Sequence record: AB218930.1
Reading direction: 5' to 3' (one strand)
Length of the DNA stretch: 853 bases
Origin: a phage
In this document: piece by piece, positions 28-810 of the stretch
Layout: every line of letters begins with the position of its first letter
Numbering within the stretch: the stretch's first letter is position 1
Made by a program: the position numbers and the translations under genes
Notes under the pieces: generated by a model
Told to the model about the DNA's origin: nothing
Database searches by the model: none
Seen by the model: the letters and a program-made list of their open reading frames with translations, nothing else

Positions 28-28
28 G

Positions 29-79
29 CTTCACTTAGCGAATGCATTAGCCTTAATCAACCAACGCCTGAAAAGGTAA
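29..79 (+). CDS. Probable 3'-terminal fragment of the maturation (A) protein gene, 5'-truncated at the cloning junction; reads ...LHLANALALINQRLKR*
   Basis: Open frame from the insert boundary ending at TAA 77-79, 16 nt upstream of the coat AUG. In ssRNA phages the maturation gene ends just upstream of the coat gene. The fragment is too short for me to confirm homology from sequence alone. Confidence 0.4.
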   Translation, partial: LHLANALALINQRLKR

Positions 80-83
80 TTAC

Positions 84-87
84 GGAG
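84..87 (+). promoter_or_regulatory. Shine-Dalgarno element (GGAG) for the coat gene
   Basis: GGAG lies 8 nt upstream of the ATG at 96. A possible small hairpin (85-105: GAGUU...AACUU) would place the AUG in or near its loop, as at the MS2 coat initiation site. The hairpin is a by-eye pairing, not a computed fold. Confidence 0.5.
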
Positions 88-95
88 TTAGCTAT

Positions 96-488
96 ATGGC
101 AACTTTACGCAGTTTCGTACTCGTCGATAATGGCGGTACGGGGAATGTTACTGTCGTTCCTGTTAGCAATGCCAACGGCGTCGCTGAGTGGCTTTCTAAT
201 AACTCGCGCAGTCAAGCTTATCGCGTGACTGCCAGTTATCGTGCGTCAGGCGCGGACAAGCGCAAATACACCATCAAACTTGAAGTACCGAAAATCGTTA
301 CTCAAGTTGTAAACGGTGTTGAGCTGCCTGTTTCCGCATGGAAGGCTTACGCCTCTATTGACCTGACCATCCCGATCTTTGCTGCAACCGACGATGTGAC
401 TGTTATTTCCAAGTCACTCGCCGGCCTGTTCAAAGTTGGGAACCCTATCGCTGATGCTATCTCTTCTCAGAGTGGCTTCTACGCGTAA
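96..488 (+). CDS. cp: ssRNA phage (Levivirus, GA-like / genogroup II) capsid coat protein, complete, 130 codons
   Basis: The translation MATLRSFVLVDNGGTGNVTVVPVSNANGVAEWLSNNSRSQAYRVTASYRASGADKRKYTIKLEVPKIVTQVVNGVELPVSAWKAYASIDLTIPIFAATDDVTVISKSLAGLFKVGNPIADAISSQSGFYA aligns along its full length with the MS2 coat protein as I recall it (FVLVDNGGTG, ANGVAEW, NSRSQAY, RKYTIK.EVPK, GVELPV.AW, LTIPIF, GNPI). It is closest to my recollection of the phage GA coat. The length is typical (~129 aa) and a GGAG RBS is present. Confidence 0.95.
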   Translation: MATLRSFVLVDNGGTGNVTVVPVSNANGVAEWLSNNSRSQAYRVTASYRASGADKRKYTIKLEVPKIVTQVVNGVELPVSAWKAYASIDLTIPIFAATDDVTVISKSLAGLFKVGNPIADAISSQSGFYA

Positions 489-679
489 TGGGTCTGAAAG
501 CAAAACATAAGGAAAACCTATGTTCCGATTCACAGAGATCGAAAAGGCTCTATGTATGGATCGCACTCGCGATTGTGCTGTCCGATTTCACGTCTATCTT
601 CAGTCACTGGATTTGGGGTCTTCTGATCCTCATTCTCCGGACTTTGATGGACTTGCCTACCTTCGTGATGAATGTTTAA
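488..679 (+). CDS. L: ssRNA phage lysis protein (L), 63 aa, single transmembrane helix
   Basis: The ATG at 488-490 shares its A with the coat stop codon TAA 486-488 (UAAUG). The product has a basic N-terminal region (KAKHKENLCSDSQRSKR) followed by a hydrophobic segment (LYVWIALAIVLSDFTSIFSHWIWGLLILIL), resembling the MS2 L protein segment LYVLIFLAIFLSKFTNQLL. Position, size and +1-frame overlap with the replicase start fit levivirus genome organisation. Confidence 0.85.
   Translation: MGLKAKHKENLCSDSQRSKRLYVWIALAIVLSDFTSIFSHWIWGLLILILRTLMDLPTFVMNV
504..524 (+). promoter_or_regulatory. Translational operator hairpin (coat-protein binding site) enclosing the replicase start codon
   Basis: AACAUAAGGAAAACCUAUGUU folds by eye into a stem 504-512 / 517-524 with one bulged A (509 or 510), a 4-nt loop AAAA (513-516), and the replicase AUG (520-522) in the 3' arm. 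This has the same architecture as the MS2 operator ACAUGAGGAUUACCCAUGU. The AGGA at 510-513 doubles as the replicase Shine-Dalgarno element. Confidence 0.75.
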
Positions 680-810
680 CCAAACATCCCTCACTTGGAG
701 ACAGTAATTCGGATGCACGCCGTAAGGAATTGGCATGTGCCAAACTTATGGATAGTGATCAAAGATGCAAAATCCAAAACAGTAACGGATACGACTACTC
801 TCATATCGAG
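520..810 (+). CDS. rep: RNA-dependent RNA polymerase (replicase beta subunit), N-terminal 97 codons only; 3'-truncated at the PacI cloning junction
   Basis: The translation MFRFTEIEKALCMDRTRDCAVRFHVYLQSLDLGSSDPHSPDFDGLAYLRDECLTKHPSLGDSNSDARRKELACAKLMDSDQRCKIQNSNGYDYSHIE matches the N-terminal region of the MS2 replicase as I recall it (GSGDPHSDDF..AYLRDELLTKHPTLG). The AUG sits in the operator hairpin, and the frame stays open to the end of the window with no stop. Confidence 0.9.

Follow-up and report, generated by a model that had tools for sequence, protein, structure and literature searches.

Introduction

In leviviruses, the coat gene is more accessible than any other cistron. Some of the ribosomes restart at the lysis AUG after the coat UAA, so that lysis protein is made at a low level. 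Binding of coat dimers to the operator hairpin represses translation of the replicase and initiates encapsidation. The lysis gene of MS2 starts inside the coat gene and not at a UAAUG overlap. Genogroup II includes the phages BZ13, TL2, and JP34, all of which were derived from sewage (PMC6963950).

Here, we analyzed a stretch of DNA of 853 bases (hereafter the window). A sequence-only reading had assigned its positions 28-810 to a genogroup II (GA-like) F-specific RNA coliphage, with the end of the maturation (A) gene, the coat gene, the lysis gene, and the start of the replicase following each other in levivirus order, and with a coat protein that is distinct from that of MS2 and matches that of phage GA. 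We compared the window with phage, plasmid, metagenome, protein, RNA, and structure collections, and transferred the annotation of GA (X03869) to it one-to-one with an offset of 1229. The resulting features are collected in Table 1.

Table 1. Features located in the 853-base window, with their coordinates and the evidence for each.
Feature	Position	Strand	Evidence and details
Left plasmid polylinker	1..27	.	SacI 4-9, KpnI 10-15, SmaI 14-19, AscI 20-27 (site map)
cDNA insert (very probable), 783 bp	28..810	+	Corresponds to phage GA X03869 nt 1257-2039 (megablast, ungapped comparison)
Maturation (A) gene, 3' end	29..79	+	16 codons and TAA stop at 77-79; end of GA CDS 136-1308
Intergenic region, maturation-coat	80..95	.	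GGAG Shine-Dalgarno at 84-87
Coat-start hairpin	84..106	+	GGAG 84-87; coat AUG 96-98 in loop and 3' stem; carries C93U
Coat gene, complete	96..488	+	130 aa including Met1; ORF, Pfam Levi_coat 132 bits
Coat-end hairpin	454..478	+	GA feature 1683-1707, potential control element of the lysis gene; folds
TAATG overlap	486..490	+	Coat stop and lysis start share one base (GA-subgroup arrangement)
Lysis gene, complete	488..679	+	63 aa; ORF, Pfam Phage_MS2_lysis 30.6 bits
Replicase translational operator	504..524	+	GA feature 1733-1753, 'pot. binding site coat protein'
Replicase (RNA-dependent RNA polymerase beta subunit), start	520..810	+	97 codons; GA CDS start 1749; Pfam RNA_replicase_B 81 bits
Right plasmid polylinker	811..853	.	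PacI 811-818, XbaI 820, SalI 826, PmeI 833, SbfI/PstI 840/841, SphI 847

Results

Similarity to genogroup II coliphages

A megablast search against 50,697 phage records returned six matches in total, all of them to genogroup II F-specific RNA coliphages of the species Emesvirus japonicum (the BZ13/GA group), with E-values of 0, far beyond chance. BZ13 strain DL20 (FJ483839) matched best, with 97.3% nucleotide identity over positions 28-810 and no gaps, followed by BZ13 strain DL10 (96.9%), GA (X03869/NC_001426; 96.7%), BZ13 strain T72 (91.0%), and KU1 (88.9%). With all matches lying between 88.9 and 97.3%, nucleotide similarity places the insert in genogroup II, at the very coordinates that the sequence-only reading had proposed. 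Ungapped comparison counted 21 differences from DL20, 25 from DL10, and 26 from GA. MS2 gave no megablast match to the insert. We also considered a recombinant between genogroups I and II and rejected it: the insert is evenly similar to genogroup II over its whole length and has no MS2 matches.

Five Logan contigs that encode an identical coat protein are 96.8-97.6% identical to the insert in nucleotides, and one environmental contig (L008), at 97.6%, is closer to it than GA is (96.7%). Among INPHARED phages, IMG/VR, JGI metagenomes, and Logan contigs with the identical coat, the highest nucleotide identity was 97.6%; further IMG/VR and metagenome loci were no nearer to the insert than this value.

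Plasmid flanks and insert boundaries

The window consists of three pieces, a phage insert and a polylinker on either side. Phage homology runs from position 28 to position 809/810, beginning directly after the AscI site and ending directly before the PacI site, and the bases before 28 and after 810 had no homology to phage records by megablast. The 70 flanking bases are filled by twelve cloning-site recognition sequences, counting the BssHII site within AscI, and none of the flanking polylinker sites occurs inside the 783-base insert. The order of sites around the insert, SacI-KpnI-SmaI-AscI on the left and PacI-XbaI-SalI-PmeI-SbfI/PstI-SphI on the right, follows the AscI/PacI/PmeI polylinker pattern. 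The flanks resemble the pUC-type polylinker of pNEB193 with its central BamHI site replaced, and this plasmid is a candidate for the vector. Because the edges of homology coincide with AscI and PacI and the sites are ordered in this way, the flanks are read as a plasmid polylinker carrying an AscI-PacI insert. The window is thus, with very little doubt, a piece of a laboratory plasmid holding cDNA of a GA-type (genogroup II) RNA phage from the middle of its genome, and the insert itself was in all likelihood an RT-PCR or cDNA fragment inserted into a pUC-type polylinker at its AscI and PacI sites.

That the window might instead be natural DNA, or an assembly artefact resembling a levivirus, is so improbable that it can practically be set aside. 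Its one point of support is that neither the whole stretch nor the reconstructed polylinker matched anything in PLSDB plasmids or complete E. coli genomes, collections that seem to lack this vector. Against it stand the exact ending of homology at AscI and PacI, the density of recognition sequences in the flanks, and the levivirus life cycle, which is not known to include a DNA stage. A literature search on pNEB193 with coliphage or levivirus returned nothing relevant to the purpose or origin of the plasmid construct. A HindIII site lies at 214-219, inside the coat gene, and would hamper HindIII subcloning from a pUC-type polylinker; it may explain the choice of the rare 8-cutters AscI and PacI.

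Gene order and coat protein

The open reading frames and three Pfam families (Levi_coat, Phage_MS2_lysis, and RNA_replicase_B, each scoring over the curated threshold of 25 bits) recover the levivirus order maturation-coat-lysis-replicase, with the lysis gene overlapping both the coat and the replicase genes. The order, sizes, and overlaps proposed from the letters alone were therefore borne out. The C-terminal peptide of the maturation protein, LHLANALALINQRLKR, is 100% identical to those of GA, DL20, and DL10.

The coat protein likewise places the insert in genogroup II. It is 97.7% identical to the coat of GA and 99.2% identical to those of DL10 and DL20, and other genogroup II coats range from 96.2 to 99.2%. 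The nearest coat outside genogroup II, that of the ssRNA phage AVE017, is 70% identical, and the coats of genogroup I (MS2/fr), a group without any megablast match to the insert, are only ~62-63% identical, so that the claimed distinctness from MS2 holds. In a PDB search, the GA capsid 1GAV was the best single-copy match (266 bits), ahead of phage fr (173 bits), MS2 (~169 bits), and PRR1 (29 bits), and a Qbeta-type A1 fusion reached only 26 bits. In both nucleotide and protein comparisons, the best matches were all from genogroup II; none came from genogroups I, III, or IV or from non-phage sequence.

MS2 nevertheless shares with the insert the fold family, the logic of the operator hairpin, a lysis gene that overlaps coat and replicase, and the Pfam families, but its coat is ~62.5% identical and its operator model is matched poorly (see below). 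A second hairpin near the end of the coat gene is predicted at -7.2 kcal/mol here, vs. -8.5 in GA and -7.4 in DL20.

Lysis gene and TAATG overlap

The lysis protein has a basic N-terminus, with a net charge of +4 over residues 1-21, and is hydrophobic over its C-terminal two thirds; its one Leu-Ser dipeptide occupies residues 31-32. The cloned protein matches P34702 (JP34), ACT66727.1 (DL20), and BAE54354.1 exactly.

Alignment around the start of the lysis gene separates two subgroups. Only KU1 and T72 carry an 18-nt insertion directly after position 488, whereas the clone, GA, DL10, and DL20-like sequences have an intact TAATG without this insertion. The absence of the KU1 and T72 insertions places the clone, within genogroup II, in the GA subgroup. 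KU1 and T72 are of the same species, with the same gene order and coats that are 96-97% identical, but the 18-nt and 3-nt insertions and a nucleotide identity of only 89-91% set them apart.

Three observations concern the KU1/T72 sequences themselves. The 18-nt insertion splits TAATG in both KU1 (L005) and T72 (L004), and their annotated lysis genes begin at a non-ATG codon. The 3-nt insertion lies upstream of the operator in both phages and is missing from the clone, GA, DL10, and DL20-like sequences. Five IMG/VR and metagenome contigs (L011, L012, L014, L018, and L019) align with three gaps and with identities similar to those of T72 and KU1; judged by gap count and identity, they probably belong to the KU1/T72 subgroup.

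Taken together, the insert is almost certainly cDNA of the central segment of a genogroup II F-specific RNA coliphage of the GA subgroup.

Operator and replicase start

In folding predictions (z = -2.8), the operator forms the expected hairpin: one A is bulged, the 4-nt loop reads AAAA, and the replicase AUG (520-522) is part of the 3' stem. Every base agrees with GA, DL10, and DL20, and the operator is, by this comparison, of the GA type. Against the Rfam model of the MS2 operator, it scored 18.1 bits, under the gathering score of 40, as expected because its loop is GA-type. The Rfam scan gave only this sub-threshold match and a chance snoRNA match, and no GA-type operator family was matched.

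The replicase fragment is 95.9-97.9% identical to the corresponding parts of GA, DL10, and DL20, and carries two residues private to the clone, T10A and Y73C. It is cut after 97 codons of the 532 that make up the GA replicase, and an exact look-up found no deposited copy of the 97-aa fragment. The replicase frame continues without a stop through the PacI-to-SphI polylinker (811-852) to the end of the window and, if transcribed and translated, would yield a fusion peptide of replicase residues 1-97 and vector sequence.

Relation to GA, DL20, and other strains

Substitutions are written from reference to clone, with Met1 counted. Relative to GA X03869, the clone differs by A59T, G79V, and E120D in the coat, by E16Q, Y49I, and Q51R in the lysis protein, and by R5T, T10A, L38H, and Y73C in replicase residues 1-97. 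All GA features nonetheless lie at equivalent coordinates, the operator is identical, and the UAAUG overlap is shared. The coat comparison upholds the earlier claim of a GA-like coat, with an identity well above the ~90% below which that claim was to be given up, but not a reading as strain GA exactly, since exact protein matches lie elsewhere. The cloned coat matches BAE54353.1 and BAE54362.1 exactly, from phages of the BZ13 species, one of them named TL2, and the coat (130 aa) and lysis (63 aa) deposits BAE54353.1/BAE54354.1, BAE54362.1, and P34702 are identical in amino acids to the cloned proteins. The accession numbers BAE54353 and BAE54354 follow one another, so that both proteins are probably matched by a single record. 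The coat of JP34 is distinguished by N17D.

DL20 is the best annotated nucleotide match and shares the layout, the lysis protein, and the maturation C-terminus; it differs in 21 nucleotides, in the coat by D116N (D116 in DL20, N116 in the clone), and in the replicase by T10A and Y73C (T10/Y73 in DL20, A10/C73 in the clone). From DL10, the clone is separated by E120D in the coat, Q51R and S62N in the lysis protein, and four changes in the replicase.

Part of the distance to GA appears to reside in the reference. Six of the 26 differences, at positions 269-270, 331, 533, and 632-633 (1498-1499, 1560, 1762, and 1861-1862 in GA coordinates), are private to X03869 among ten comparators, and they include two adjacent doublets. 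Five substitutions trace to these bases: A59T and G79V in the coat, Y49I in the lysis protein, and R5T and L38H in the replicase. The structure 1GAV, which differs from the cloned coat at one residue, has T59 and V79 as in the clone and against X03869. Because the underlying bases are X03869-private and 1GAV has T59 and V79, we regard A59T and G79V as peculiarities of the 1986 GA record and not of the clone. Errors in the sequencing of the reference, or changes specific to its phage stock, probably account for the X03869-private bases. E120D, on the other hand, is a natural polymorphism, with D120 common to DL20, T72, KU1, JP34, and SD.

These observations bear on whether the insert could be phage GA itself, from a laboratory stock that differs from the 1986 reference, which we consider unlikely. 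The X03869-private sites, whose adjacent doublets are typical of old gel-reading errors, and the agreement of 1GAV with the clone at residues 59 and 79 mean that the true distance to GA is smaller than 96.7% implies. However, 20 differences are left after the X03869-private sites are discounted, and 17 of the 20 are shared with other natural strains. The clone has D120 in the coat, where both X03869 and 1GAV have E; its lysis protein has Q16 and R51, exactly as in JP34 and DL20 and unlike GA (E16, Q51); and both DL20 and contig L008 are closer to it than GA is. The clone is therefore probably outside GA sensu stricto. Because its coat and lysis proteins exactly match BZ13/TL2-type and JP34/DL20-type proteins, the strain, although GA-like, is probably not GA itself. 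On sequence comparison, a BZ13-, TL2-, or JP34-type strain is a likelier source than GA.

Clone-private bases

Three transitions, C93T, A547G, and A737G, are private to the clone. The bases they replace are invariant among the natural genogroup II sequences covering each position (15 sequences at position 93, 16 at positions 547 and 737), and all genogroup II loci recovered later have the common bases at the three sites. The three variants were not found in IMG/VR by exact 20-22-mers. C93T lies 3 nt before the coat ATG, within the coat-start hairpin, where U93 pairs with G98 in place of the natural C93-G98 pair; the predicted minimum free energy changes from -8.2 to -5.8 kcal/mol. A547G causes T10A in the replicase without altering the lysis protein sequence; A737G causes Y73C.

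The private bases are most likely cloning (reverse-transcriptase/PCR) errors or strain-private changes. That C93U, T10A, and Y73C are functional changes of an unsequenced or laboratory-evolved genogroup II strain, with an altered efficiency of coat translation, seems improbable. Less probable still is an engineered or experimentally evolved variant in which C93U loosens the coat-start hairpin to alter coat expression and T10A and Y73C were selected or designed. Such a variant would fit the invariance of these bases in all 15-16 natural sequences and the 2.4 kcal/mol that C93U is predicted to take from the hairpin holding the coat AUG. But each change is a single transition, and the three are spread across 650 nt, as expected from RT/Taq errors or RNA-virus drift; T10A and Y73C fall in a truncated, non-functional replicase fragment, where design would be pointless; and there are no tags, added promoters, or recoding, while both the overlapping reading frames and the RNA hairpins remain intact.

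Variation in the coat-only region agrees with a natural source. Among eleven aligned sequences, variable sites at codon positions 3, 1, and 2 number 56, 7, and 3, respectively, a pattern that, as judged from the alignment, is typical of natural purifying selection and not of design. A synthetic recoded gene was rejected on the basis of this natural codon-position pattern.

Discussion

In the phage RNA, the cloned segment would serve as a translational control center. By analogy with established levivirus biology, including work on MS2 and GA, the coat gene would be translated from a Shine-Dalgarno sequence and an AUG held in a weak hairpin, and ribosomes ending at the coat UAA would reinitiate at the overlapping AUG (UAAUG) to produce a little of the 63-aa lysis protein, which is expected to be membrane-active. 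With the replicase start codon in the 21-nt operator hairpin, binding of coat dimers would turn the replicase off late in infection, and coat dimers on the operator would also nucleate packaging.

The cloned DNA is inert save for possible expression of coat and lysis proteins under a vector promoter. No phage can arise from it because it holds only the start of the replicase and the last codons of the maturation gene. If transcribed, the clone could give coat and lysis proteins and an RNA with a packaging operator. Clones of this kind are in routine use, and this one may have served as a sequencing clone, as an RT-PCR standard (e.g., for fecal source tracking), or as an intermediate for coat or lysis expression.

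Nothing in the window is novel: genogroup II coliphages, the gene overlap, and coat-operator repression are already textbook material. The practical value of our findings lies in annotation hygiene. The window should be labeled as vector with the cDNA of a genogroup II levivirus (GA subgroup) rather than as an element that is cellular or novel, and the coat differences A59T and G79V from GA are best read as quirks of an old reference record.
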